Positions 34,786-61,600 of a stretch of 64,000 bases of DNA are shown here, piece by piece. Under the pieces are notes generated by a model. It ran no database searches. It was not told where the DNA came from and was given only the letters and a program-made list of their open reading frames with translations. The position numbers were made by a program, and so were the translations under genes. How positions within the stretch are numbered: position 1 is the first letter of the stretch; every line of letters begins with the position of its first letter. The stretch comes from a virus: the IMG/VR virus record IMGVR_UViG_3300042516_003202; one strand, written 5' to 3'.

Positions 34786-34815
34786 AAAAAAAGGAGGGAA
34801 TCAATCCCTCCTTAA
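34786..34815 (-). terminator. Rho-independent terminator closing the micro-ORF operon
   Basis: AAGGAGGGA-TTGAT-TCCCTCCTT followed by a T-run. Confidence 0.85.
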
Positions 34816-34825
34816 CGTATTTCGT

Positions 34826-34909
34826 TTACCTATAAATCAACTGAATGAACAAAGATAATAGAGTGATAAACGTAACAGATGCAACAGTAATTTGTGCAAT
34901 AACCATCAT
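34826..34909 (-). CDS. 27-aa hydrophobic micropeptide (single TM helix)
   Basis: MMVIAQITVASVTFITLLSLFIQLIYR; TAATG overlap with the upstream ORF. Confidence 0.55.
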   Translation of the reverse strand: MMVIAQITVASVTFITLLSLFIQLIYR

Positions 34910-35007
34910 TACCTTGCTCCCGCATTTATAAGAAGTGCTTGATAACGTCTATCTTGTTTTTGCTTTTGTTCTTTAATAAGTTGAAGAAAATTGAGTTTTT
35001 TCATCAT
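34909..35007 (-). CDS. 32-aa basic micropeptide
   Basis: MMKKLNFLQLIKEQKQKQDRRYQALLINAGAR; ATGA overlap with the DUF4278 ORF; GGAGG Shine-Dalgarno upstream. Confidence 0.6.
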   Translation of the reverse strand: MMKKLNFLQLIKEQKQKQDRRYQALLINAGAR

Positions 35008-35141
35008 TTATGTCCCTCCTTTACAAACTTAACGCCACGATAAGTTTCGTTATATTGTTGAGGTTGTTGCATCATTTGTTGTTGATACTCAAGACGTTTT
35101 TGGGTATCATATTCGACACCACGATATACTACTTTTGACAT
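35004..35141 (-). CDS. DUF4278 (YRG-motif) small protein, 45 aa
   Basis: MSKVVYRGVEYD...TYRGVKF has two YRG motifs; GGAGG Shine-Dalgarno at 35150-35154. The 99-aa track ORF extends into the RNA leader. Confidence 0.8.
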   Translation of the reverse strand: MSKVVYRGVEYDTQKRLEYQQQMMQQPQQYNETYRGVKFVKEGHK

Positions 35142-35171
35142 TAGGATTTCCTCCAGAATGAGATTTTTAGG

Positions 35172-35268
35172 CCCCGTTCCTTCGGGCGGTTTGCGTTCGC
35201 TATTTGCGAATAGCGAATGAACGTCCCGTTCCGCCGTCCTACTTGCGTCTGGTTTCCCAGATGAACGT
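35172..35268 (-). ncRNA. Glutamine riboswitch-like RNA (glnA / Downstream-peptide family), apparently tandem or nested
   Basis: CGUUCA-UCUGG(GAAA)CCAGA-CGCAAGUAGGACGGC-GGAACGGG-A-CGUUCA-UUCGCUAUU(CGCA)AAUAGCGAA-CGCAA-ACCGCCCGAA-GGAACGGG; P1 CGUUC/GAACG and AGUA/GAA E-loop-like motifs; lies directly upstream of a DUF4278 gene. Confidence 0.75.
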
Positions 35269-35274
35269 AAGGTC

Positions 35275-35303
35275 ATTATAGACCCATTGCATTTATATAG
35301 CAA
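35275..35303 (-). promoter_or_regulatory. Sigma70-type promoter driving the riboswitch/DUF4278 unit
   Basis: TTGCTA-N17-TATAAT; predicted start site about 35268, at the first riboswitch nucleotide. Confidence 0.75.
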
Positions 35304-35311
35304 GTTTAAAC

Positions 35312-35327
35312 TGTAACATCTGTTACA
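35312..35327. promoter_or_regulatory. NtcA binding site
   Basis: TGTA-ACATCTGT-TACA is an exact GTA-N8-TAC, inside the longer palindrome AAACTGTAACA-TC-TGTTACAGTTT. Confidence 0.75.
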
Positions 35328-35348
35328 GTTTTATAAAATCTTAAGGGC

Positions 35349-35377
35349 AAAAAAATACCCCAAAATTTTTTCGGGGT
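35349..35377 (-). terminator. Rho-independent terminator insulating the NtcA/riboswitch unit from upstream genes
   Basis: ACCCC-N11-GGGGT-A followed by T7. Confidence 0.7.
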
Positions 35378-37002: not shown

Positions 37003-37010
37003 TATTTATT
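37003..37010 (-). promoter_or_regulatory. T4-type late promoter (AATAAATA)
   Basis: Matches NATAAATA about 26 nt upstream of glutaredoxin. Confidence 0.55.
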
Positions 37011-37812
37011 AATACCCATCTTCATGCCAACATTCATTGTATCCATTTTTTTGATCTTCATATGGATAAAAATTTAATTGTTTTTTGGGCCACATTAAAT
37101 CAATATCAGTTTTTGGAAATGATTTAAATATTTTTTTATTCAAATTTTGACTAATTTCATAAACTTCTTGCCATTTAGGAGCATAATCATAAAGATATTC
37201 GTTAGGATAAAGTAAAAACAGTTTAATCCTATCATCATAATTAGAACAATAATGTGCTCCAATATAAGTTTCAGTTCTTATAAAGTGTCCATAATATTTC
37301 CATAGATCATACTTACTTATTCTCACTTTGTCAACAAGTCCATTTATTTCAAGGGGAATATCAAACATTTTAATTAAGTGTTCGGTTTTACCCCAAAAAA
37401 CATGATCTCTTGGGTGGAATAAAAGGTGTGGATACATTCCAGGAACAAAAATTCGGTCTTCATTCCTGTGCTCTATAAAGAACTGATACATGTTCATCAT
37501 ACTTTGATGAGTGTATTTTTGATCAGTTCTCATTTTAATTGCGTATTCAGTTGTAACTTTTTGCAAACCAGCAAAAGAAGTCACAATTTGCAGATTTCTA
37601 TTATCTGTTCCTGGTGTAATCGGAAACTTATTTGAAATAACAAAGAATCTTGAATTCGGAATGTAGGTAACAACATCATCCTCCCAACAAGAAAGAATAA
37701 TGTTGTTTACGAATGGCAATTCAAAATAAGAATCTATGACTTCATTAGTAAATTCATCGTATCGCCCTTGCAGAACAATATCAATTTTTTCAAAGTTATT
37801 ATTCTGCATCAA
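37009..37812 (-). CDS. WavE-like lipopolysaccharide synthesis protein
   Basis: DIVLQG...IILSCWE...DNRNLQIVTSFAGL.KV.TEYAIKMRTDQ...FHPRDHVFWG. Confidence 0.75.
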   Translation of the reverse strand: MMQNNNFEKIDIVLQGRYDEFTNEVIDSYFELPFVNNIILSCWEDDVVTYIPNSRFFVISNKFPITPGTDNRNLQIVTSFAGLQKVTTEYAIKMRTDQKYTHQSMMNMYQFFIEHRNEDRIFVPGMYPHLLFHPRDHVFWGKTEHLIKMFDIPLEINGLVDKVRISKYDLWKYYGHFIRTETYIGAHYCSNYDDRIKLFLLYPNEYLYDYAPKWQEVYEISQNLNKKIFKSFPKTDIDLMWPKKQLNFYPYEDQKNGYNECWHEDGY

Positions 37813-39194
37813 TTCTTTTTTTCTACGATTTCAAGATTAAAACTTGCAATATTCTCCTTAGATCTTTCTAGATAATAATCATTCATTTCATAATTTGTCA
37901 TAAGATCTTGGAATAATTCTTTACATTCTTCAGACTTACCCCACCACCATCCAGAAAGTGCTTTTTGATAAATTAGACCGTATTTACCAGGATACTCAAC
38001 ATCAGTAATAAGATCTGGGTGATCAAATGTTGAATATTCTAAACCTTGACAAGCAAAAGTATATGCTTCCATCCACTGACTTCTTCTTTCAGCAAATCTA
38101 CTCAAAAGGAAATATGCCTCTGGTCTAGATGGTACAGAACAAAGTGCTTGTGTTAAAAGGGACTTAGAACTATTGTCTCTAGTTCCCTGTTTATCATAAC
38201 AATAAGATCCTCTAATAAGTGCCTCATAGGTAAGATTATCATCTTCAGATCTTTCTGCTGCTCTTAAGTAATAAGAAAGAGCTGGTGCAGTATGCCCACC
38301 GTTTTCGTACCAAACGCCAAGATTAAAATTATGAATTGCATTTTCAGTATCAAGAGAAAACTTAGTCAAAAGATCCTCTAATTCAGTTTTTTCTCTTTTT
38401 GGTTTTGGTTGTTCAGTTCCCACAAGTTCCTCAATCGTAATATTTTGTCCGTTCTTTTCCCACCAAGAAGAAACAAATTCCTGACTCTCTGCATGATGGT
38501 CTTTAGTACCACCTTCAATATTTGCAGTTTCAGTAAAAGTTGATTGGAACTTTACCTCTTCGACAAATAAATCTACAGCGTAAACTTTTCCAATATCATA
38601 AAAAAGAACAGTTTCCGGCATAGGATAAAAATCTGTTCCGTAAATTTCAAGATTAAACTTATCACCAAAACAGTAACGATCTATAATTTTTTTAGCATAA
38701 TTGCGCTTCATAATGTATGCGGTCACCGACCAATCATACATGGATCGTTCTTTAAGAACAATAGAATCGTGCGATGGTTTAATGCAACATAATTGTACAC
38801 AATCCCAATCTTCGGGAAGATTATTTACAAAATCATTCCAAGTAAAATTCCAATTAGAAACAGTTTCTAGACTAAGATCATCCTCACAAAAGAATGCATA
38901 TTCGTCATCAGTTTCCTCATACCATTTTTTAATCATTTTAATATGAGAAACTACACATCCAATAGTTCCCCCATCAAGAATATGCAATTGTGGTCCAGAA
39001 ACTTGATCGGATGATTCTGAATATCTTTTAGAAATTACTCCTTGTAAATCATAAACTCCATATTTTAAAAAACTTTTTCTCAGGTTTTCCCTCCTATCTT
39101 CACTTTCTTCCAAACTAATATAATAAACTTTTGGAAAATTATTCAATTTTTGTTTTTGGTCGGGATAACTTGCCATCATTAACGAACTATTCAT
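37809..39194 (-). CDS. GT25-family glycosyltransferase fused to a TPR-like helical domain
   Basis: VYYISL...DRR...IGC..SH..........FCEDD; C-terminal helical repeats (ALSYYLRAAE, PSRPEAYFLLSR). Confidence 0.75.
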   Translation of the reverse strand: MNSSLMMASYPDQKQKLNNFPKVYYISLEESEDRRENLRKSFLKYGVYDLQGVISKRYSESSDQVSGPQLHILDGGTIGCVVSHIKMIKKWYEETDDEYAFFCEDDLSLETVSNWNFTWNDFVNNLPEDWDCVQLCCIKPSHDSIVLKERSMYDWSVTAYIMKRNYAKKIIDRYCFGDKFNLEIYGTDFYPMPETVLFYDIGKVYAVDLFVEEVKFQSTFTETANIEGGTKDHHAESQEFVSSWWEKNGQNITIEELVGTEQPKPKREKTELEDLLTKFSLDTENAIHNFNLGVWYENGGHTAPALSYYLRAAERSEDDNLTYEALIRGSYCYDKQGTRDNSSKSLLTQALCSVPSRPEAYFLLSRFAERRSQWMEAYTFACQGLEYSTFDHPDLITDVEYPGKYGLIYQKALSGWWWGKSEECKELFQDLMTNYEMNDYYLERSKENIASFNLEIVEKKN

Positions 39195-39670
39195 TGATTA
39201 CCTCCATTAATTTTATCTCTATAAAAAATTGGTTTGTCTGTGCATATACCAAAACTATTTTTTATGTATTCTGGATGTTGAGAATACAATTTAACATTCT
39301 CTGGTAATACAATTACTGAATTTGAATATGGAATTTGTCCTACAAGAACCCACCCAATTCCACTACTTGTTAGCGTATAACTATCGTTTTGATGCCAGAA
39401 GTAGTTAAATTTTACCACAGAACTTGACATTTTTTCAAGTGCTTCACGATTTTTGCAATGAATCCAAAGAACATCCTTATATTTTCTTAACCACTCCATA
39501 GTTACAAAATATTGAGGATTATCGTGACCAAGATAGCATTGATTATCTTCCACTCTTAAATCAACTTCAACATCAAATCCCTCTAGAATTGCATTCTCAA
39601 TATATTCTGGTTTATTTTCTTCTACTGGATTTATAGAATTCAAATTACCACGATGAGATATAATTTTCAT
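39191..39670 (-). CDS. Short GDPD/PI-PLC-like phosphodiesterase-fold protein
   Basis: IISHRGN...EN.PEYI..AI..GFDVEVD...YLGHD...WIHCKN...GICTD. Confidence 0.7.
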   Translation of the reverse strand: MKIISHRGNLNSINPVEENKPEYIENAILEGFDVEVDLRVEDNQCYLGHDNPQYFVTMEWLRKYKDVLWIHCKNREALEKMSSSVVKFNYFWHQNDSYTLTSSGIGWVLVGQIPYSNSVIVLPENVKLYSQHPEYIKNSFGICTDKPIFYRDKINGGNQ

Positions 39671-39671
39671 A

Positions 39672-40478
39672 TTAGTTATAAAATTGATTTAAAACTACAA
39701 TTTCACTGTTTATCATATCATCTATAGTTTCATATTCATTTCTTCTGTATCCAAGTGAATCTGCAGTCGTCCAAATCTGATTCCAATGATTTGCACGTAT
39801 AACAAATGGTTCCATATATTTGTCTGGTAAAAAATCAATATACTTTCTCATAAGCATGTCATGATTTTCACTTGTAGGATCTTCTCCAGATATTCTAATA
39901 AAATTTTTAGTGTACATTATTTCTGGCCCACTATCTAATATACCAGAATTTATCATTTCTAGAGTTTTTTCAAATGTCTTTATCATTTTATTAGTTTTAG
40001 ACACCATTAAATGATCTGCCGCACAATATTCAAAATAAACTTTTTGTCCAAAAAACGTTCCACCAGTTACCAGTTTTTCGGTATCCAATAAAAACTTATC
40101 TAGAATCAAGTGTAAATTCGAATATCTTTCATCCACTCTATGTTTTAAAACATAAGGAGTAGAAACATTGTTCAACCCATTTAACGTACTGACAGTTTGA
40201 AATTTGATTCCACAGTCATTATCTATTTCATGATTCTCATCAAAATCTTTGAATGATAAATTGTTTATTCCATTAGTTACACTTTGAGTAACTATTTGAA
40301 TACTTTTTTCTTCGCATATTTTTAAAAGTTTTTGATTTGTGCAAATATGCTCGTCGTAAGTTGATAGTACTATTTTAGAGAATAAAGATTGATAGTAATC
40401 AATAGAATCCAAAAAATCTATTTTAGTAAGATCATTAGTTGGACCTTGAACAACTAATGTAAAATCAGAATAGTTCAT
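39672..40478 (-). CDS. Second WavE-like protein
   Basis: TLVVQGP...IVLSTY...FQ..STLNGL..V.T.YVLK.RVDE...ADHL. Confidence 0.65.
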   Translation of the reverse strand: MNYSDFTLVVQGPTNDLTKIDFLDSIDYYQSLFSKIVLSTYDEHICTNQKLLKICEEKSIQIVTQSVTNGINNLSFKDFDENHEIDNDCGIKFQTVSTLNGLNNVSTPYVLKHRVDERYSNLHLILDKFLLDTEKLVTGGTFFGQKVYFEYCAADHLMVSKTNKMIKTFEKTLEMINSGILDSGPEIMYTKNFIRISGEDPTSENHDMLMRKYIDFLPDKYMEPFVIRANHWNQIWTTADSLGYRRNEYETIDDMINSEIVVLNQFYN

Positions 40479-42040
40479 GAATTATTCAATGCTAAAACTT
40501 CTATAGCGTTGTAGACATTTTTACACATTTCATAAACTCTCCACTTAGATTTTGGTTCAACATAATACTCAGTAATTTCACCGACCATTTCTTTATTTTG
40601 ATCAATATGTTTCTGTGCCAAAGCATATTCAACTTGCCATTGAACTTCTTGTTCAGTATGTCCTTGATTTCTCATATTTTCTTGAACCATTTTTATAAAA
40701 TCAGATTCCCAAGAAAATCCTTCAAAATGTTCTGTTCTTTTTTTATCAGGATGTGGAAGATGAATAGTGTGATAATCGTGTCTCAATCTAGTCTCTTTAA
40801 GACCCATCAATTTTAACCTTTCATAGAACTCTTCATCTTCAAATGCATAACACTTAGATAAATTTTCATTATACCCACCACATTTGAAAAAGTTTTCTTT
40901 ACTGATTAATAAAAGACCTATTAAGAATTTAAAATATGGACTATAGGAAACAGTGTAATCAACAATTTCTTCTGGTTTCATTTGGTGCATATCAATTACA
41001 TATCCACCGTAAGATTCGGAATAATATTCTGGAGCTTGATAATTGCTTTTTCCAGAAACAAAACTTTGATTATCAACTGGATAAGCATCAAAGAAATTAT
41101 AATATGGATTGATAATGTAATCACAATCTACTTTTAAAATATAATTTCCAGTGGCAATACTTGCAGCAAGATTTAAAGGTTGTGGTTGATTAAAGTATTG
41201 CTTATTTTTTACTTCAATAATTTTAATTCTATCGTCCAATTTAGAAAGATGAGAAATAGATTTATCAGAATCCCAATCAACAATTATAATTTCATGTATT
41301 TGATCAAATGCCAACCAAGAATTTAATGCAATTCTAAGAGCATTATATCTATTTTTACATGCACAAATTAAAGATATTCTTTGAGTTTCTTTAGTTCTAA
41401 CACAAATCCAATCACCTTCTTCATATGGGTGATTGGGAGCAGGTATAAACTGATCCAATCTAAAATTATTTCCGATTAAATAATTTTCCAAATCACTTTT
41501 CACTGCTTGTCCTTTATAGTATGGTTTTGGACATGCTTCAGTATGAATAACTTTAACAGAATCCAAATAAGTTCCCATACCTTTAAGAACTTTTAATTCT
41601 GCCCCTTGAGTATCCATCCAGATACAATCAACCTTTTCAACACCAATTGATTTCAAAAAACTATCTAATCTTTTTGATTGAACTTTTATCTTATTCCAGG
41701 TTCCAGAACTATAAGGAACATCAATAGGTTCAAACATTGAAGAACCACCGACATTTCCATCAACAACCCAAAAATCAACCTCACCTTCCTCGTCGGACAA
41801 TGCGAAATTATAAACTTCTATATTTTCATAGTGTTTAGATTTTTCAAAACACATATTATATTGTTCTGGGGTCGGTTCAAAAGCAATTATTCTTGAATTT
41901 GGAAAATGACTTAAAATTTCTATACTAGAATTTAAATCACGAGATCCTATCTCTAAGATAATTTCTGGATCTGTATTTCCATAAACCTCACGAATTTTAT
42001 TCGCAAATAAATCTAAAGTGTTAACACAAAAATCATACAT
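40475..42040 (-). CDS. FkbM-family methyltransferase fused to a GT2/GT7-like glycosyltransferase
   Basis: ILEIGS...AFEP...FALSD...SKRLD...DCIWMDTQGAELKVLKG; then ISLICACKNR...IIIVDW.S...LKVDCD...GGYNE...FEDEEF..RL. Confidence 0.8.
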   Translation of the reverse strand: MYDFCVNTLDLFANKIREVYGNTDPEIILEIGSRDLNSSIEILSHFPNSRIIAFEPTPEQYNMCFEKSKHYENIEVYNFALSDEEGEVDFWVVDGNVGGSSMFEPIDVPYSSGTWNKIKVQSKRLDSFLKSIGVEKVDCIWMDTQGAELKVLKGMGTYLDSVKVIHTEACPKPYYKGQAVKSDLENYLIGNNFRLDQFIPAPNHPYEEGDWICVRTKETQRISLICACKNRYNALRIALNSWLAFDQIHEIIIVDWDSDKSISHLSKLDDRIKIIEVKNKQYFNQPQPLNLAASIATGNYILKVDCDYIINPYYNFFDAYPVDNQSFVSGKSNYQAPEYYSESYGGYVIDMHQMKPEEIVDYTVSYSPYFKFLIGLLLISKENFFKCGGYNENLSKCYAFEDEEFYERLKLMGLKETRLRHDYHTIHLPHPDKKRTEHFEGFSWESDFIKMVQENMRNQGHTEQEVQWQVEYALAQKHIDQNKEMVGEITEYYVEPKSKWRVYEMCKNVYNAIEVLALNNS

Positions 42041-42055
42041 TTTTAAATATCTCCA

Positions 42056-43294
42056 TCAAAAATCTAAAACCCACTCGGGTAAAGAACCTCCACCAGTTTC
42101 ATAACCCCACTTATCAATAGCAACACGAAACTCTGGTCCAGGATTCTTATCAATTGCTTGGCGCATTGCCAAAGCACCCGCCAGAGTGCCGCCTGGATGC
42201 CCGTGTACGGCACCTCCGCAGTTAGCAAGGAAGTCCGTACCAAACTTCTCTGCCGTAGTGTTTACGATGCCAGGATGCATACCACAGCTCAATGCAGGAA
42301 GAACATTACGCCTGTGAAGAGTTTCCATAGTTTGGCGAAGTTCATTCTCATCATCACTCAAGTATCCACCCCACATTCCAGCATGAATTGTATCCACACC
42401 ACAAAGACCTGCAAGATCGCAGAGAACATCCCAATCAATACCAAATGCATGTCTCTTATCAGTCAGAATCTTATCACCACTCTTTTGATAGTGAATAAAC
42501 AAAGGTAAATCCATTTTTCTAACAGAGTTATAAACTCCAAGACCAGACCAGAAGTTAATATGAATCCCATTGCCCCCATTGTCTGCAACAAATTTAGCAC
42601 GATCAAGAATAGTATGGTGATCACCATTAATGCAGAAGGCATAAATCACATTCCTTCCACAATTATTAACAATATTAGAAATCAGTTCTACACGATCTTC
42701 AAGACGGCAGAATGAAGGGTTAGAAAGAATCTCATCTTCTTTGATAAAGTCTACACCACCATCAAGAAGTTCTTTCACCATTTCGGAAAGAGTTTGTGGA
42801 GAAATTCCAGTCTTCGGTTTTACAATCGCACCAGAAAGTGGTTTATCATAACGATTGACAAACTTACGAATACCGTCAATACCATTCTTTGGTCCAAGAA
42901 AAGATGCTTCAACATCTGCAGGAAACTCTAACTTCTGAAGTCTACATGCTTTAAAAACATCAATATCCAATTGTCCTCCCATAAGTTGACAAAGAAGATG
43001 TGAAATTCCATCACCTTCCCAATCAGTGTTTACTTTCGGAAAACCAATTTTAACTTTCCCAGAATAGACACCCGTAAGATTTTCTTCGGTATCGTAAATT
43101 ACACATGAAGAAAGCTCAAAAAGTTCATCGCTTTCCCAACGATTACGAACCTTTGGATTGCCTACACTCTGCCCAATCGCAAGGTTCCAGGCAGCATCTC
43201 TCAAATCTCCAACTTGTTGATGTGCTTCAATATAATACGTTGCAATCACACAACGATTTTTTTCTTGTTCGGTTAATTCTCTAAAAAACTTCAT
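42056..43294 (-). CDS. RuBisCO-like protein (form IV RLP), 412 aa
   Basis: AIGQSVG; FLGPKNGIDGIR; PLSGAIVKPKTG; GGVDFIKEDE; DTIHAG; ALSCGMHPG; GGAVHGHPGG..AGA.AMRQA. Start set at ATG 43294 (GAGG Shine-Dalgarno, 1 nt after the cupin stop). Confidence 0.92.
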   Translation of the reverse strand: MKFFRELTEQEKNRCVIATYYIEAHQQVGDLRDAAWNLAIGQSVGNPKVRNRWESDELFELSSCVIYDTEENLTGVYSGKVKIGFPKVNTDWEGDGISHLLCQLMGGQLDIDVFKACRLQKLEFPADVEASFLGPKNGIDGIRKFVNRYDKPLSGAIVKPKTGISPQTLSEMVKELLDGGVDFIKEDEILSNPSFCRLEDRVELISNIVNNCGRNVIYAFCINGDHHTILDRAKFVADNGGNGIHINFWSGLGVYNSVRKMDLPLFIHYQKSGDKILTDKRHAFGIDWDVLCDLAGLCGVDTIHAGMWGGYLSDDENELRQTMETLHRRNVLPALSCGMHPGIVNTTAEKFGTDFLANCGGAVHGHPGGTLAGALAMRQAIDKNPGPEFRVAIDKWGYETGGGSLPEWVLDF

Positions 43295-43295
43295 T

Positions 43296-43616
43296 TTAAA
43301 CCTCAAATTTATCTGATGGAATGGAGGGAACTTTTACACATACTACTGTACAGTCTTCAAGAAAGATAGGATCTGCAACTTCTCCCTTATCAAATACAAA
43401 TACATCTCCACTATTTAACTCCTTTTCTTGAATCATCATTTTTCCAGAAAGAAGAACATTATATTCTACACTATCTTTATGATAATGTGCTGCCCACACT
43501 TCACCCTTAGGATGAAACAAAACACCAACTTCAAAATCTTTCGTTCTTAAGATAGATGGATCAAAATCACCAATAATCCACCCTCTATGATAGTCCTTTA
43601 AATTACTTAAATTCAT
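43296..43616 (-). CDS. Cupin-fold protein (RmlC-like)
   Basis: GWIIGDF.P......EVG...H.KGE.W..HYHK...EYN..LSG.M......GDVF; HxH...E metal motif. Confidence 0.8.
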   Translation of the reverse strand: MNLSNLKDYHRGWIIGDFDPSILRTKDFEVGVLFHPKGEVWAAHYHKDSVEYNVLLSGKMMIQEKELNSGDVFVFDKGEVADPIFLEDCTVVCVKVPSIPSDKFEV

Positions 43617-44326
43617 AATTTTGAAATAAAAGTTTCTAAATCTTCTGGAACGCCAACTGGATTATGTTGCCAATTCGGAATATGATGAATGCCAACTTTG
43701 AGACCTTGTTTAATCATATGATTATAAGTTGGACCAACATAAAATTCTCCATTAGGAGCCCTATCATTGCATTTTATCATATTTTCTGCACTTTGTACAA
43801 AATACTTTCCCTTTCTCCAATAATGAATTCCATTTAAAGAAATATCACTTATAACTTCTTTTTCTTTTATTTCCTGAACAAAACCTTTTTTATCAATTCT
43901 AGCATAACTGTTTTTTGGAGTATTAGTACTATACGTTACAACTAAACCATCATACTTATAGTATCTTGCAGAAGTGAGAAATAAATTAGAATCCCACCAC
44001 ATAATTTGATCACAATTTGCAACAACCAATTCATCTTCATTATTAATATAATCACGAAACAGTAAACAACTCGATGCAGGTCCTTCCGTTGTTTCCTCTA
44101 CACTAATAATCTTAGACGTTGGAAAAATAGAATGAAGCAGTGTACATACCTGATCATAATAACTATCCTTTCTTATCACAAAGTGATAAGTTCCATTCAA
44201 TCCCAAAGATTCTGTTGCCATTTTAATCATTGGAACCCCATTAATTTCAATTAATGGTTTTGGAATTTTATAAGTGTCTCTGGGAAATCTAGTTCCTTCC
44301 CCAGCCATTGGAATTACAATGTTCAT
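43613..44326 (-). CDS. Sugar-phosphate nucleotidyltransferase
   Basis: IVIPMAGEGTRF...PKPLIEING.PMI...T.GPA...VANCDQ...EIKEK.VIS...GI.YW...EFYV.P.YN. Confidence 0.85.
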   Translation of the reverse strand: MNIVIPMAGEGTRFPRDTYKIPKPLIEINGVPMIKMATESLGLNGTYHFVIRKDSYYDQVCTLLHSIFPTSKIISVEETTEGPASSCLLFRDYINNEDELVVANCDQIMWWDSNLFLTSARYYKYDGLVVTYSTNTPKNSYARIDKKGFVQEIKEKEVISDISLNGIHYWRKGKYFVQSAENMIKCNDRAPNGEFYVGPTYNHMIKQGLKVGIHHIPNWQHNPVGVPEDLETFISKL

Positions 44327-44329
44327 GAA

Positions 44330-45229
44330 TTAGAGAAACAATTGAGCCAATTTTTTTGTAGTTAAATTCTTTTTAGAAAAGTCAAAAAGATATTCACAAA
44401 TTTGATCATATTGAGGGTGTATCTTACCTTTCATCGCATATTTATTTGTCTCTAAGATGAGAGATTTTGGTAAAGAAGTCATAATATACGGAGGACAATC
44501 TTTCAAATCAGTAAAATATGGAATACTTCTATTCGCAAGAATTTCATAATGCCTCAAACAATCCCATCCCATTTTTTTACAGGTTCTGCCATAATAAGAT
44601 TTAGCATAATCTTCATAATATGATTTTTCATCTTCAAAAATGTATGTATCAGCATATCCAGGAACAACATGCCCAAATATTTTTTCTTTTGTTGGAATAT
44701 GATCTATAAATTGACTCTCCGGTATTGCAAAGGAAATTGGATTTGCAATGCTAATATCATACAATTCCCTTTTCCATACTATCCCATACTCATGTAAACC
44801 AGATTGTCCAGCAAAATCATCAGGTTCATCTGCACCATCAATGAAATGAACTTTATTTTTTGGATAATGTTCTTTTACATGCTCTAAGTAGTCTAAGCAT
44901 TGTCTCTGAGGAAACCAAGGATGTGTATATACGCATCCATAAATTACCATATCATAAAATTTTGATTTTATCTTATCAATAATCACTTCTGGAGATTCAA
45001 CATTTGGTTGATGATCTAATTTACAATATACAGTAAATCCTTTAGTGTTATTTCCATCAAATTTTCTAACAAAATCAGAACTAGTAGACTGTTCAGAATC
45101 AAGGTAATATTTCATCATGTAATGTGGGGGATACGTTTCATAAACGTCAACGCCATTGTCAATTAATCCATGATAAACCATATCCTTCATATAATCTTGA
45201 ATATGATTCGTTACAAACAATACTTTCAT
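44330..45229 (-). CDS. Putative GT-B glycosyltransferase (CgeB-like)
   Basis: FIDGADE...KRE.....PISFAIP...KSYYG.T.KK.GWDCLRHYEILAN..IPYF. Confidence 0.6.
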   Translation of the reverse strand: MKVLFVTNHIQDYMKDMVYHGLIDNGVDVYETYPPHYMMKYYLDSEQSTSSDFVRKFDGNNTKGFTVYCKLDHQPNVESPEVIIDKIKSKFYDMVIYGCVYTHPWFPQRQCLDYLEHVKEHYPKNKVHFIDGADEPDDFAGQSGLHEYGIVWKRELYDISIANPISFAIPESQFIDHIPTKEKIFGHVVPGYADTYIFEDEKSYYEDYAKSYYGRTCKKMGWDCLRHYEILANRSIPYFTDLKDCPPYIMTSLPKSLILETNKYAMKGKIHPQYDQICEYLFDFSKKNLTTKKLAQLFL

Positions 45230-46050
45230 AATTTTTTAAATGAATTAGAGATAAACAAATTTTTTATAGATTCTTCATATTCAGTATCATATTTAATAAA
45301 AATATCATTATTATATGGAACATTTTTTTCAGATTTACATAACCACCGTGTAGTATCATCTTTTGATTTAACCACAAATTGAACTCTAGGAAATTTTTTT
45401 ACTTTATTAAAATATCCTATTCTATTAAAATAGTAAACATAAGATCTTTCTATATTTAAATAAAACGGATCGTCTCTCATTTCCCAAAAATCTTGTATTA
45501 AATATTCAGTGTTGACATAATTATCAATTATACCAAGAACAATATCAATATCGGAAGATGGAAATATATGATGCCTATCACTTATTCCACCATATTCTTC
45601 ACCATAAGGAACCCAAAAAAAATCATTTGGTAATATTGGATGTTCTTGGACATAAAAATGATCACTTCTTGTAAGAATTATTCTGTCATAATTTAATAGT
45701 ACTTCCTTTTTATTCTTTAGCAAATAATGCCTAAGTGCTAAGGTTATTGCACTGGATCCTATAGTTCCATAAAGACCAGAAAAACCAGTTTTAGATCCTA
45801 ATTCAAAAGATTGTTTCCAACTTCCTTCACCAAAATTTTCTACGTAATAATCAGCCCATTCTTCATATTCTGGAACTTCCCAAATATATTTCGCCTTTGA
45901 ATACAATGAATGGGATTTATTTTCATTAAAACCAAAACATAATGCAAGATCGGACTGATATGGTTCTAACAAATTTCTATACATGCTATTCCATGCTTTT
46001 TCACCACCCCTAGGATTTCCAATTACTACAGTAAGTGTTTTTTCCATCAA
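45226..46050 (-). CDS. Putative glycosyltransferase-like protein of unknown family
   Basis: YDRIILTRSDH...EEYGGISDRH; operon context. Confidence 0.45.
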   Translation of the reverse strand: MMEKTLTVVIGNPRGGEKAWNSMYRNLLEPYQSDLALCFGFNENKSHSLYSKAKYIWEVPEYEEWADYYVENFGEGSWKQSFELGSKTGFSGLYGTIGSSAITLALRHYLLKNKKEVLLNYDRIILTRSDHFYVQEHPILPNDFFWVPYGEEYGGISDRHHIFPSSDIDIVLGIIDNYVNTEYLIQDFWEMRDDPFYLNIERSYVYYFNRIGYFNKVKKFPRVQFVVKSKDDTTRWLCKSEKNVPYNNDIFIKYDTEYEESIKNLFISNSFKKL

Positions 46051-46781
46051 GTATTACCAAATACAACTCTTTTCCAATCTATACCATTATTAATTTGAAC
46101 TTGAAAATCAAACCTTTGTGGAATTATTCCATAAAAATCTAAATGATTTTTCAATATAGACTCTGGATGATATTTGCTATCTCCAATTTTTTGCAAGTTA
46201 TGATAATTCCAAAAAACATTAGAATACAAGTCCATTCCGTGTGATGTTCCAACTGCAAATTGATCATTGATTCCATTGCACCAATCATCACCAACAGGAA
46301 CACAAACATCAGAATTTAAATCTTCAAGATTTAAATTTTTACTTTTAAAATTACTATCAAACCTCATCCTAACAACACGATCAAAAGTCATTCTATGAAG
46401 TTCTTCATATTTTCTTTTAAGATCATTAGACCTATAAATTGAATAATGCATACTTATAGGTCCCACATCAGTTCTTAAATATTCAGAAAACTCTAATGAT
46501 GAAAAAATATCGTGAAAATAATTCTGTTTTGAATCATAATCTTCTACTAAAAGACTTTCATATGTATAATTTTGCTCAACAAAACTTACGTCAGTATCTA
46601 CAGTTTTATCCTCTTCTTTATTTTTAACATCATAAATTGTTTTTACAAACTCTTCTCTGTCATTTATTTTCCAAGTATGAATAAAAACTTTAATGTCTTC
46701 ATTAGGAATAATATTTTTTAAACTTTCCAATCCAATATGTGGATATCTGATTCCTCCAGAAATACAAACCGCTACTTTCAT
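46047..46781 (-). CDS. Putative glycosyltransferase-like protein
   Basis: MKVAVCISG..R...KVFIHTW...SMHYSI...FDRVVRMRFD...NDQFA.G...HPESIL; operon context. Confidence 0.5.
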   Translation of the reverse strand: MKVAVCISGGIRYPHIGLESLKNIIPNEDIKVFIHTWKINDREEFVKTIYDVKNKEEDKTVDTDVSFVEQNYTYESLLVEDYDSKQNYFHDIFSSLEFSEYLRTDVGPISMHYSIYRSNDLKRKYEELHRMTFDRVVRMRFDSNFKSKNLNLEDLNSDVCVPVGDDWCNGINDQFAVGTSHGMDLYSNVFWNYHNLQKIGDSKYHPESILKNHLDFYGIIPQRFDFQVQINNGIDWKRVVFGNT

Positions 46782-47758
46782 TCAAAAATATACTCCTTAA
46801 CAAATTTTTGAGGAACTTTAAGTAAGTAAGCTGCATTATCCTGAAAACCAAAAGTAATCAAATAGTCATCTCCAAATTCACACATTCCAACAGCAAACTC
46901 AACATTTGCTTCTAAGAAAGAAAATCTCTTAGATACAGTTACAATTTCCCAATTTTTGTCCCAAACAATGAAACGATGCCTGTAATGCCCATCTTTTCTT
47001 CCAGCAGGACTTTGATATAAGAAAGTTTCATGATTTAGAGACATTCTGCATTCGCCAAATGGTAATACTTGAGAACCACCACGAAGATCTACACATCCTA
47101 AATCTTTCCAAGAAGTTTGACAAACAGTTTCTGTTTTACCAGTATTAATATCATACTTAACAATTTCTGTGCCATTTGTCCATTTTACAAAATGGTATGG
47201 CATATCAAGAATTGGCATCCAGTTTTTATTACAATATTCATCATCATTTCCCGGAGCAGGAATTCTATAACGATTTATTTCACGAACTCCATCTTCATAA
47301 ACAATTACTTCTGATAGTTCCATTCTACCAGTTCCAATTGTGTCAAGATCTCTTCTTACACCACAAATATAAAGCTTTCCATCCCATCTAACAATTCTTG
47401 CATCTTCAAGACCAACAAATTCCCACTGTGGTTGATATGTATCAAACGCAGCAGTATCTACTCTATGATACCACTTTAAGTTCATAGTTTCATCCATCTC
47501 ACCCATTACATTATTTGTTCTTAGGTGAAGATCATTTTCAGGATGAATATAAACAAGAGGTCCCCATTGATGTTCAAATTTTTTCTTTTCTGAATGATAA
47601 AGAGTGTAGTTTATATTTCTAAGATTGACTAAAATTTTACCATTATCATTATAAATTGAAGGATTCGTAATTGCAGGTCCTTGCAAATATGAAGAAGGAA
47701 AAATCAAAGGGTGAATGCTTCCACCATTTTCCAAAGCAAGTTTTACAAAATTACTCAT
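46778..47758 (-). CDS. Five-bladed beta-propeller glycosidase/phosphorylase-like protein (GH130/GH43 clan-like)
   Basis: TNPSI...GLEDARIV.W.GKLY...KNWMP...LRGGSQ...Y.HRF....VEFAVG. Confidence 0.7.
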   Translation of the reverse strand: MSNFVKLALENGGSIHPLIFPSSYLQGPAITNPSIYNDNGKILVNLRNINYTLYHSEKKKFEHQWGPLVYIHPENDLHLRTNNVMGEMDETMNLKWYHRVDTAAFDTYQPQWEFVGLEDARIVRWDGKLYICGVRRDLDTIGTGRMELSEVIVYEDGVREINRYRIPAPGNDDEYCNKNWMPILDMPYHFVKWTNGTEIVKYDINTGKTETVCQTSWKDLGCVDLRGGSQVLPFGECRMSLNHETFLYQSPAGRKDGHYRHRFIVWDKNWEIVTVSKRFSFLEANVEFAVGMCEFGDDYLITFGFQDNAAYLLKVPQKFVKEYIFE

Positions 47759-58602: not shown

Positions 58603-61600
58603 TTAGAAAATCATCCCCATCATTACTGGACTTATATCGGGAGTTCCCGCTCCTCCGCCTGTTATATTTATTGTTGCAATTCCTGAAGAAACTGTTACTG
58701 TAGAAACACCAGGACCTTCAAAACTCAAATAAGTAGTAAATCCAACAAATCCACCACTTGTTGAAATTCCAAAACCACTTACTCCAATATTAACTTGTTG
58801 TGGTGTTGGACCAAACTCAACCCACTGCTGCGAATCACCATCATCAAACCAAGTATATGTAATTCCATCATCTTCATCAATCCAATAATCACCAGAAACT
58901 GTAGAAATATTAGGTGGAGATGATGATCGGAAAACTCTAAATCCTCCACCAAGTCCCTGAGTTCCTTGTCCAGCATAAAGACCATCAATACCTTGCGTTC
59001 CTTGAGTTCCATTTATACCAATAGAACCTGCAAGTCCTTGCAATCCTTGTGTTCCTTGTCCAGCATAAAGACCATCAATACCTTGCGTTCCTTGAGAACC
59101 TTGAGATCCTGGAATTCCTAATCCCTGAGTTCCTTGAAGTCCTTGTGCATCAAATGCACCTCTAAGTCCTTGAGAACCTTGAGATCCATCCAATCCAACA
59201 CCTTGAAGACCTTGAGTTCCTTGTCCAGCATAAAGACCATCAATACCTTGCGTTCCCTGAGAACCTTGAATACCTATTGGTCCTATAATTCCCTGATTAC
59301 CTTGAATCCCTTGATTACCTAAAGATCCCTGAACACCTTGAATACCTTGAGATCCTTGAACGGATAAACCTTGTAAACCTTGAACAGATAAACCCTGAGA
59401 ACCTTGAGAACCAATACCTTTATCACCTTGAAGACCTTGAGCACCTTGTGTTCCAGTTCCCCCACTAAATCCTTGAAGTCCTTGAATTCCTTGTTGCCCC
59501 AAATCATTAACTGAAATAGTTCCAGCCATAGAAGAATGATATTGGCAATTATAATATAAAGTGTTTGGAGCATCAAAAGGAACTACAAATGTTATTGTCC
59601 CATTATCAATTCCATTATTCGTAACTCCAGTATTATAAGCATCTCCAGTTCCAGTGGTTTGTGAAGTTTTAATCCAGAAAGGATGCCCAGACGCACTGAC
59701 AACAAATTGATAAGTAAATCCTCTTGCTAAAATCAAAGTTGGATTATTTTGAGAATTTATAGTGTAAGAAGATGCTCCAGAATTATAAACATTATAAGAA
59801 ATATTACCAACTACTCCCTGTGATCCAAGTTCACCTTGAAGACCTTGAGAACCTTGAGATCCAATTATACCTTGTGTTCCTTGAGATCCTTGAGCACCAA
59901 TAGTTCCTTGAGTTCCTTGAGCACCAATAGTTCCTTGAGTTCCTTGAGTTCCTTGAGATCCTTGAGAACCGATAGTTCCTTGCAAACCTTGAGAACCTTG
60001 TGAACCAATTATACCCTGTGTTCCTTGCAAACCTTGAGATCCAAGTTCACCTTGAAGACCTTGAGAACCTTGAGATCCAATTATACCTTGTGTTCCTTGA
60101 GATCCTTGAGAACCAATGATTCCCTGAGTTCCTTGCGAACCTTGAGATCCAATAGTTCCTTGAGTTCCTTGAGTTCCTTGAGATCCAAGTTCACCTTGAA
60201 GACCTTGAGAACCTTGAGATCCAATTATACCTTGTGTTCCTTGAGTTCCTTGAGATCCAAGTTCACCTTGAAGACCTTGAGATCCTTGAGAACCAATGAT
60301 TCCCTGAGTTCCTTGCGAACCTTGAGATCCAATAGTTCCTTGAGTTCCTTGAGTTCCTTGAGATCCAAGTTCACCTTGAAGACCTTGAGATCCTTGAGAA
60401 CCAATGATTCCCTGAATTCCCTGTGAACCTTGTGATCCAATAATACCTTGAGTTCCTTGAGTTCCCTGAGCACCAGTTGGTCCAGTTGCTCCCCCAGCTC
60501 CACCAGATAGAAGATTAGTTGTTACACCGATACCTAATGCAGTTACGTCCCAATATCCACCTCTATTAGTTCCACCAGTTTCAAAAATTCTAACTTTATT
60601 TTCGTAAATATCAATTGTAATGCCAGTATCAATTGATGTACTTGATGCTGGTTTATTGAGTTTTATTTCACCACCTTCACTACCAGAAGATTGTGTTGAT
60701 TCTAGAATTGGAGATTTTAATGTTGTACCATCAAAAGTAAGATTTGATTCGCCATTAAATGGTGTATTAGAATCTCCAGTAGCAGTAACTACGTAATTAT
60801 TTGTATTATTTGTAATTGCAGTTGCTGCAGAGGATCCTTGAGTTCCCTGCGAACCTTGTGATCCAGTTAGTCCTTGAGTTCCTTGAGAACCTTGGGAACC
60901 GATAAGACCTTGAGTTCCCTGAGCACCTTGAGAACCAATAACACCTTGAGTTCCCTGCGAACCTTGTGATCCAGTTAGTCCTTGAGTTCCTTGGGAACCT
61001 TGGGAACCGATAAGACCTTGAGTTCCCTGTAAACCTTGCGTTCCTATTGTTCCTTGAGTTCCCTGAGCACCTTGAGAACCGATAAGACCTTGAGTTCCTT
61101 GTGAACCTTGCGAACCGATAACACCTTGTGTTCCCTGAGCACCTTGAGAACCTTGCGTTCCTATTGTTCCTTGAGTTCCCTGAGCACCTTGAGAACCGAT
61201 AAAACCTTGAGTTCCCTGAGTTCCTTGAAGTCCCTGCAAACCAGCAGCATAAGGGGTTGTCCAAGAAACTCCTCCGCCAGTAGAAGTTAAAATAGATCCA
61301 GCAGCACCAACACTATTAGATCTATCTTTAAGACCACCATCTAATTCTATTGTACCACTAAAAGTAGAAACACCAGAAACATTTAATTGTCCCAATGTTC
61401 CAACAGAAGTCAATGATGAATTAACGACTCCAGTACCAAGAGTATTTTTATCTTCAAAAACATTAGATCCGTTAATTTTGTAAGTTTTTGTATTATCAAG
61501 ATTAAAGTTTTCACTTGATTTTAATGAACTATTAACATTATCCCAAGTTAAAGTTTTTCTTATATTAGTAGATCCAATACCAATACCAGCACCATCAAGA

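Follow-up and report, generated by a model that had tools for sequence, protein, structure and literature searches.

A predicted pair of nested glutamine aptamers and a conserved NtcA-type box ahead of a small-peptide operon in T4-like cyanophages

The locus and its small genes

The window analyzed here (the whole stretch of 64,000 nucleotides from IMG/VR virus record IMGVR_UViG_3300042516_003202) is part of a T4-like cyanophage with 35% G+C. Its genes include those for ThyX, PhoH, gp32, an exonuclease, the baseplate hub, and tail proteins. All of its best matches at the nucleotide level are cyanophages or marine viruses, and the closest, the freshwater phage S-SRM01, has an identical gene order. 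Upstream of the locus, positions 37009-47758 hold a cluster of genes resembling glycosyltransferases, methyltransferases, and probably nucleotidyltransferases; a 412-aa ORF at 42056-43294 has no PHROG match.

A first-pass annotation had read a compact operon on the minus strand, consisting of terminators, an NtcA box, a promoter, an RNA, a Shine-Dalgarno sequence, and three coupled ORFs, and each of these parts was found in place (Table 1). The predicted transcription start, A35268, lies one base ahead of the aptamer, and each downstream ORF (ORF2, ORF3) overlaps the stop of the preceding one. The next promoter (34804-34776) has its -35 element in the loop of the operon terminator and its -10 element just past the U-run, an overlap that recurs in many relatives.

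Table 1. Features of the locus, listed in the direction of transcription
Feature	Position	Strand	Remarks
Intrinsic terminator of the upstream gene (phrog_485), insulating the operon	35349..35377	-	9-pair stem 35377-35357 plus U-run
NtcA-type palindrome	35308..35331		perfect 11-bp arms; core 35327-35312; centre about -51.5
Sigma70-type (early) promoter	35275..35303	-	-35 at 35303-35298, 17-nt spacer, -10 at 35280-35275
T4-late-promoter-like motif	35290..35299	-	7/8 to TATAAATA; overlaps the end of the -35 hexamer; putative function
Outer glutamine-I aptamer	35174..35267	-	Rfam and comparative folding
Inner glutamine aptamer, circularly permuted, lying within outer P3	35192..35232	-	comparative folding
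ORF1 Shine-Dalgarno sequence	35150..35154	-	leader conserved
ORF1, 45 aa, two YRG motifs, 8 Gln, phrog_5049	35004..35141	-	DUF4278-related, homologue of the IF17 N-terminal repeat
ORF2, 31-32 aa basic peptide, probably helical	34909..35007 (start 35007/35004)	-	coupled to ORF1
ORF3, 27 aa hydrophobic peptide	34826..34909	-	one predicted membrane span; optional operon member
Operon-closing intrinsic terminator	34786..34813	-	loop and tail carry the -35 and -10 of the next promoter

ORF1 behaves as a real gene, with 537 synonymous versus 168 non-synonymous codon differences across 42 loci. It has 272 database relatives, and both YRG motifs are invariant. It had earlier been labeled DUF4278. As a family call this falls short, since the peptide scores 19.1 bits against PF14105 (cut-off 25.3; E 0.0017), but homology to the YRG repeats of DUF4278 and IF17 is well founded: all 32 of the 32 homologues searched match PF14105 at E values up to 0.1 (best 1.7e-7), the ORF1 profile aligns with the N-terminus of host IF17 at a probability of 96% (E 2e-9), and its Atlas neighbours are DUF4278 proteins. 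The basic inhibitory helix of IF7 and IF17 is absent from ORF1. The structural model is weak (pLDDT 69), placing a helix between two beta-hairpins, and gave no fold match; a PDB sequence search with ORF1 and ORF2 and a search of NCBIfam likewise returned no match. An N-terminally extended ORF1 of 90-99 aa and similar database calls of 62-79 aa are probably mis-calls, because only 15 of 50 relatives have an uninterrupted frame across the aptamer.

ORF2 is conserved with third-position bias and constitutes its own family of small proteins. Its matches in the Atlas all lie below 0.8. In seven loci it is fused behind a YRG motif, which is the domain order of IF17; a reverse fusion of 54-55 aa, an ORF2-like helix followed by two YRG motifs, is found in loci of the L131, L012, and L152 types. 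ORF3, present in 21 of 44 related loci, reaches a hydropathy of 2.2 over 19 residues and is probably a single-span membrane peptide. Five host-genome loci (L383, L384, L385, L388, L389) have glutamine-I riboswitches before hydrophobic membrane peptides of about 70-75 aa, with no DUF4278, and these may be relevant to ORF3. Some phage loci (L019, L049, L054, L114, L122) carry a further optional ORF of about 50 aa after ORF2 or ORF3; it begins with an acidic stretch rich in His, contains one YRG motif and cysteines, and does not occur in the window.

Predicted architecture and distribution of the leader RNA

The structured RNA had been annotated as a glutamine riboswitch, and its glutamine-I identity is confirmed: RF01739 matches 35269-35171 with 39.9 bits (gathering threshold 35; E 3.5e-5), which puts the outer unit above threshold. 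What had been missed is that the RNA is a double aptamer with a second, nested pocket, which the Rfam alignment treats as a 52-nt unaligned insert in P3. The glutamine-II model (RF01704) at its gathering threshold gave no match in the window, and the leader forms three-way junctions instead of a pseudoknot. Single-sequence folding was uninformative (z -1.4).

The outer unit is a P1/P2/P3 three-way junction with loop E. P1 pairs 35267-35263 with 35179-35175, P2 spans 35261-35248, the loop-E strands are 35243-35240 and 35183-35181, P3 pairs 35239-35234 with 35189-35184, and the long-range linchpin is C35245-G35174. The P2 and P3 pairs covary and the loop-E strands are conserved. P3 forms a helix containing a single mismatch, A-C or C-A; a kink-turn at this place was considered and rejected. 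The inner unit has a permuted strand order, in which the P1 3' strand (35231-35227) and a short linker precede the P1 5' strand (35223-35219), P2 (9 bp, 35217-35196), and a junction strand, and its linchpin is C35193-G35226. It thus departs from the standard order and has a short junction in place of loop E.

Each P1 strand is present twice, and the leader could be read instead as an ordinary tandem pair of glutamine aptamers. That arrangement is known and common among glutamine riboswitches (157 doublets; PMC9481103), and true tandems exist among the loci that we fetched. The two readings can be told apart by the long-range 23-60 ‘linchpin’ pair, described by Ren et al. (cited in PMC6212724). 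The outer linchpin is Watson-Crick in 114 of 114 distinct loci (94 C-G, the window included, and 20 G-C), and its swap spans ten P3 subtypes. The inner linchpin is Watson-Crick in 113 of the 114, with L001 as the one broken exception, and is swapped on both sides in L085 and L096; because these covarying loci are related, the inner swap is probably one event. Both linchpins fit the nested fold in 113 loci versus 92 for the tandem fold. Twenty-two loci discriminate, and 21 of them fit the nested fold at both pairs, whereas the tandem linchpins fail in all 22.

The alignment points the same way. Over 47 sequences, the nested structure is 96% paired with 12 double-changed pairs, above all shuffled and slid controls, whereas the tandem pairing is 77% paired and has no covariation. 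RNAalifold, unaided, places both P1 stems in nested order, and folding energies favour the nested over the tandem structure by 7 kcal/mol. In a tandem, the first unit would be without a loop-E 3' strand and without a P3 hairpin, and its P3 strand in fact forms no hairpin alone. The tandem reading, which we regard as exceedingly unlikely, is therefore rejected on covariation. Taken together, the comparative data show two predicted glutamine pockets, head-to-head, joined through one shared P3 helix.

In an alternative that we think rather unlikely, only the outer pocket binds glutamine, and the inner unit is a scaffold or the remnant of a gene-carrying form after gene loss. Loop E is absent from the inner unit, the inner linchpin is broken in L001, and single-aptamer versions drive the same peptides in L006, L019, and L040, all of which would suit a scaffold. 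However, glutamine-II binds without loop E, the inner linchpin swap in L085 and L096 involves both partners, and all ligand-contact positions listed for glutamine-I and glutamine-II (PMC6698751) are kept in both cores, although the invariance of P1 and of the inner G is partly fixed by our search patterns.

Cultured carriers of the nested RNA include S-PM2, S-CREM1, S-SRM01, DSL-LC02, and P-SSM2. A search of about 770 different cyanobacterial genomes gave two with the nested junction, each time among T4-like phage genes with 34-37% G+C. As both matches sit in phage context, the nested form was not found on host chromosomes proper, and all its finds were in phage contexts. Three nested-aptamer loci are in genomes filed as bacteria (L358, G001:C36; L359, G755:C1; and L303), and L358 and L359, surrounded by T4-like cyanophage genes of low G+C, are probably infecting or mis-binned phage DNA. 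The pattern scan of genome contigs mostly returned chance hits: two of its 120 loci had a complete nested head, and a third, L275, is a longer variant.

The inner P2, a plain hairpin in the window, houses a gene of 49-69 codons, mostly phrog_504, in its loop in 53 of the 114 loci. This gene starts in or adjoining the P2 5' strand and usually stops in the outer loop-E strand. It thus traverses the inner aptamer, so that a translating ribosome would unfold both pockets. The product contains two cysteines, for example at L001:1456-1623, L003:1019-1171, and L398:712-861 (unannotated in P-SSM2), with about 50 more such loci, and in many gene-in-loop loci the inner linker reads as a Shine-Dalgarno sequence.

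Other departures from the window's form were seen. Five viral glutamine-I loci before multi-YRG peptides (L007, L027, L028, L104, L121) have another large structured insert in P3. In L088 an open frame breaks up the inner aptamer and, to judge from its sequence, resembles the start of a homing-endonuclease-type gene. The nested leader of L010 is partly deleted, with the inner P1 3' strand gone, and lies directly before an ORF2-type gene without ORF1.

The NtcA-type box and its promoter

Within the window alone, promoter-like sites are at chance level (9 versus 8.9 in shuffles). GTA-N8-TAC occurs 18 times versus 9.8 expected, and just two of these sites lie outside long ORFs, the other being at 60779-60792. 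This single-window evidence is weak, and we take the box and promoter as real because they are conserved. About 230 viral loci were fetched with RNA-only patterns, the box being part of no search pattern. The upstream 100 nt contain an exact GTA-N8-TAC in 53 of 58 loci of the window's type (1.7 in shuffles) and in 31 of 49 loci of the gene-in-loop type (1.5 in shuffles), leaving 18 of these 49 without it; in P-SSM2 the box is degenerate.

The position of the box is conserved as well. In the window it ends 9 nt upstream of the -35 element, and in 61 of 72 loci the distance is 8 nt; 47 boxes end 42-47 nt ahead of the aptamer. In a set of 68 loci, no bases but GTA and TAC are invariant, the flanks are rich in A/T, and the centre varies, a pattern that matches NtcA sites. 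These comparisons show an NtcA-type site at a fixed spacing from the predicted early promoter. Dual sensing by an NtcA box and a glutamine riboswitch before conserved small ORFs is well supported by conservation over more than 100 cyanophage loci.

The earlier placement of the box centre at about -51, away from class II spacing, is confirmed at -51.5, and most boxes of the related loci likewise have their centre near -51; overlooked was the overlapping late-promoter-like motif, which follows the -35 element in the window and in its relatives. Class II activator spacing (about -41.5, with the box replacing the -35 element) occurs in no phage locus, and the window has a separate -35. Relative to the sigma70 promoter, the window's box does not overlap the core and in this departs from a classic gif-type repressor site; relative to the late-like promoter it would lie at about -35, and in variant loci the core itself is overlapped. 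One recurrent position is 24-26 nt before the aptamer, in the -35 region, in loci that mostly have no recognizable -35 and keep the A/T-rich late-type motif. Another is 5-6 nt before the aptamer, over the -10 element, and 11 loci have a box over the -10. In host gifB homologues the box lies 10-20 nt before a single aptamer in 13 of 24 loci. At the NtcA-repressed pirA promoter, a site at -48.5 has been proposed to block alpha-CTD (PMC8092223).

Since variant boxes overlap the -35 region or the -10 and none has class II spacing, we think that NtcA probably acts as a repressor at the phage box. Activation from -51 in a class I-like manner, with transcription rising under nitrogen shortage while translation depends on glutamine, would turn the operon into a detector of the band-pass or recovery type. 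In favour of this, the box is placed ahead of the -35 without overlap, its tightly held spacing suggests contact with polymerase, NtcA activating from sites upstream of -41.5 has been described (PMC6316151), and Sullivan et al. assumed that phage NtcA boxes are activating (PMC3037559). Activation is nonetheless unlikely in our judgment, for the promoter owns a good -35, variant loci move the box over core elements, and host DUF4278 genes are NtcA-repressed (PMC6212724). It is also conceivable, though very unlikely, that the palindrome serves a regulator other than NtcA, encoded by the phage or by the host. Its 11-bp arms exceed what NtcA needs; however, the conservation profile is NtcA-like and the same box lies ahead of host gifB riboswitches. 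Repression by NtcA is the reading carried forward below.

Proposed circuit, peptide target, and relation to known systems

Both described classes of glutamine riboswitch are ON switches (PMC6212724, PMC6698751), and we infer the same direction for the riboswitch in the window. In phage loci with a G-C linchpin, position 60 is modeled as opening a helix that pairs with the Shine-Dalgarno sequence, as proposed for gifB, and access to the ribosome-binding site is predicted to rise on binding in 8 of 9 nested and 21 of 32 single loci. The window belongs to the C-G subtype, for which predicted access is unchanged (0.41 versus 0.39), with 13 loci going up and 12 down. Because folding predicts no change for this subtype, the ON direction is borrowed from homologues and from glutamine-II, an ON switch whose long-range pair is likewise C-G. 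The opposite possibility, an inverted (OFF) platform in C-G loci, was considered, and folding favours neither direction.

We hypothesize that the operon is a nitrogen-sufficiency ON gate that copies the host gifB circuit, a proposal on which we judge the chances evenly balanced. Under nitrogen shortage, host NtcA loaded with 2-oxoglutarate would bind the box, obstruct the alpha-CTD/UP region together with the overlapping late promoter, and so dampen transcription. When 2-oxoglutarate is low, NtcA would be released, and at high glutamine both coupled pockets would fold and the peptides would be made. Both pockets would bind glutamine, with mutual stabilization sharpening the response. By analogy with homologues, glutamine binding would switch on translation of ORF1, and ORF2 and ORF3 would follow through translational coupling. 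ORF1 and ORF2 could then act as a split IF17-like pair, one supplying the YRG repeats and the other the basic helix, and tune either host glutamine synthetase or a nearby nitrogen regulator once the host's mRNA is degraded.

The ORF1 orthologue S-PM2d190, which has the same box and nested RNA upstream, yields transcripts in infected cells. Their level at 3 h is 1.8-fold higher when the host is P-starved (log2 fold change 0.87, FDR 0.01), and the gene has no Pho box (PMC10976474). This indirect evidence fits a relative nitrogen excess, the condition varied being phosphate, not nitrogen.

The target is the least secure part of this proposal, and glutamine synthetase or a neighbouring nitrogen regulator as the target of ORF1 and ORF2 is a tentative and somewhat doubtful assignment. 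Its attraction is that YRG repeats followed by a basic helix is the order of IF17, seen here in split and fused forms. In addition, the ORF2 consensus is in register with the core of the IF7 helix (column-shuffle p 0.001, a significance inflated by helical periodicity). Profile searches with ORF2 found relatives of 29-75 aa only and no IF7, and hhalign against the IF7 helix gave a probability of 2% (E 0.023). Of the three arginines essential in IF7 and IF17, ORF2 keeps the middle one and has no counterpart of the other two. Its resemblance to the inhibitory helix is thus weak, a lead and not a membership.

These arginines also speak for the rival view, to which we give slightly less than an even chance, that the peptides are not glutamine synthetase inhibitors. 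They would instead protect the enzyme as decoys for host inactivating factors, or bind another target such as PII, a protease, or a phage protein. Of IF17, ORF1 contains only the portion that inhibition can do without and that promotes stability (PMC6316151), the DUF4278 proteins of three picocyanobacterial genomes are YRG-only, and unrelated small ORFs lie behind the same riboswitches. Moreover, the phage needs glutamine for nucleotides and protein, and inhibiting the enzyme looks costly. The domain order and the helix register noted above argue against this view. The full model, in which the nested permuted aptamer binds two glutamines cooperatively and, with NtcA, gates a split IF17-like pair controlling the feedback of host glutamine synthetase, seems to us improbable as a whole.

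That phages exploit PhoBR, the phosphate regulator of the host, is established; for NtcA, the case has so far been built on counts of motifs. An NtcA site that keeps its position, together with cultured carriers (S-PM2, S-CREM1, S-SRM01), makes the latter directly testable. If the architecture is as predicted, a circularly permuted natural aptamer lodged within another would represent a new design for a two-ligand switch. At just 94 nt, the leader makes ITC, probing, and crystallography straightforward, and the Rfam model currently hides the inner aptamer as an insert. The peptides also offer a handle on the role of YRG-only DUF4278 proteins in picocyanobacteria.

Several elements of the locus are already known singly: the logic of the gifB circuit, glutamine riboswitches in phages (PMC9964418, PMC9004378), phage NtcA boxes (PMC3037559), and tandem aptamers (PMC9481103). 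In the literature that could be searched, we found no description of the nested permuted architecture, the positional conservation of the box, ORF2, or ORF3. Glutamine-I RNA (the glnA RNA motif, RF01739) is recorded for cyanophage S-CREM1 and others (PMC9964418) and for methylophage Melnitz (PMC9004378); the passages searched in these two papers do not mention nesting or permutation. The S-CREM1 match is the same nested RNA as that of the window.

The closest known system is gifB (IF17) of Synechocystis sp. PCC 6803, which combines an NtcA-repressed promoter with a glutamine-I riboswitch (PMC6212724). The phage operon shares with it the NtcA box, a glutamine-I aptamer at the 5' end of the transcript, and a DUF4278/YRG-type product. 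Unlike gifB, it is phage-borne, has its box near -51 and not over the core promoter, and has two nested pockets in place of one, with a C-G and not a G-C linchpin. Its 45-aa product is without the inhibitory C-terminal part, and two extra coupled ORFs follow.

Tandem, pseudo-cooperative glutamine riboswitches (PMC9481103, PMC2864571) likewise place two pockets before one gene, whereas the phage pockets are nested and share a helix, and the inner one is circularly permuted. Glutamine-II (Downstream-peptide, RF01704) resembles the phage RNA in its ligand-contact core, in its C-G long-range pair, and, for the inner unit, in the absence of loop E (PMC6698751), although the phage RNA has no P2 pseudoknot. 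The glutamine-II loci of marine picocyanobacteria also have short, YRG-only DUF4278 products (PMC6698751, PMC6316151). Finally, Sullivan et al. (2010; PMC3037559) suggested that GTA-N8-TAC sites in T4-like cyanophages link phage genes to the nitrogen state of the host. Those sites are motif predictions, whereas the site in the window is positionally conserved and tied to a riboswitch.
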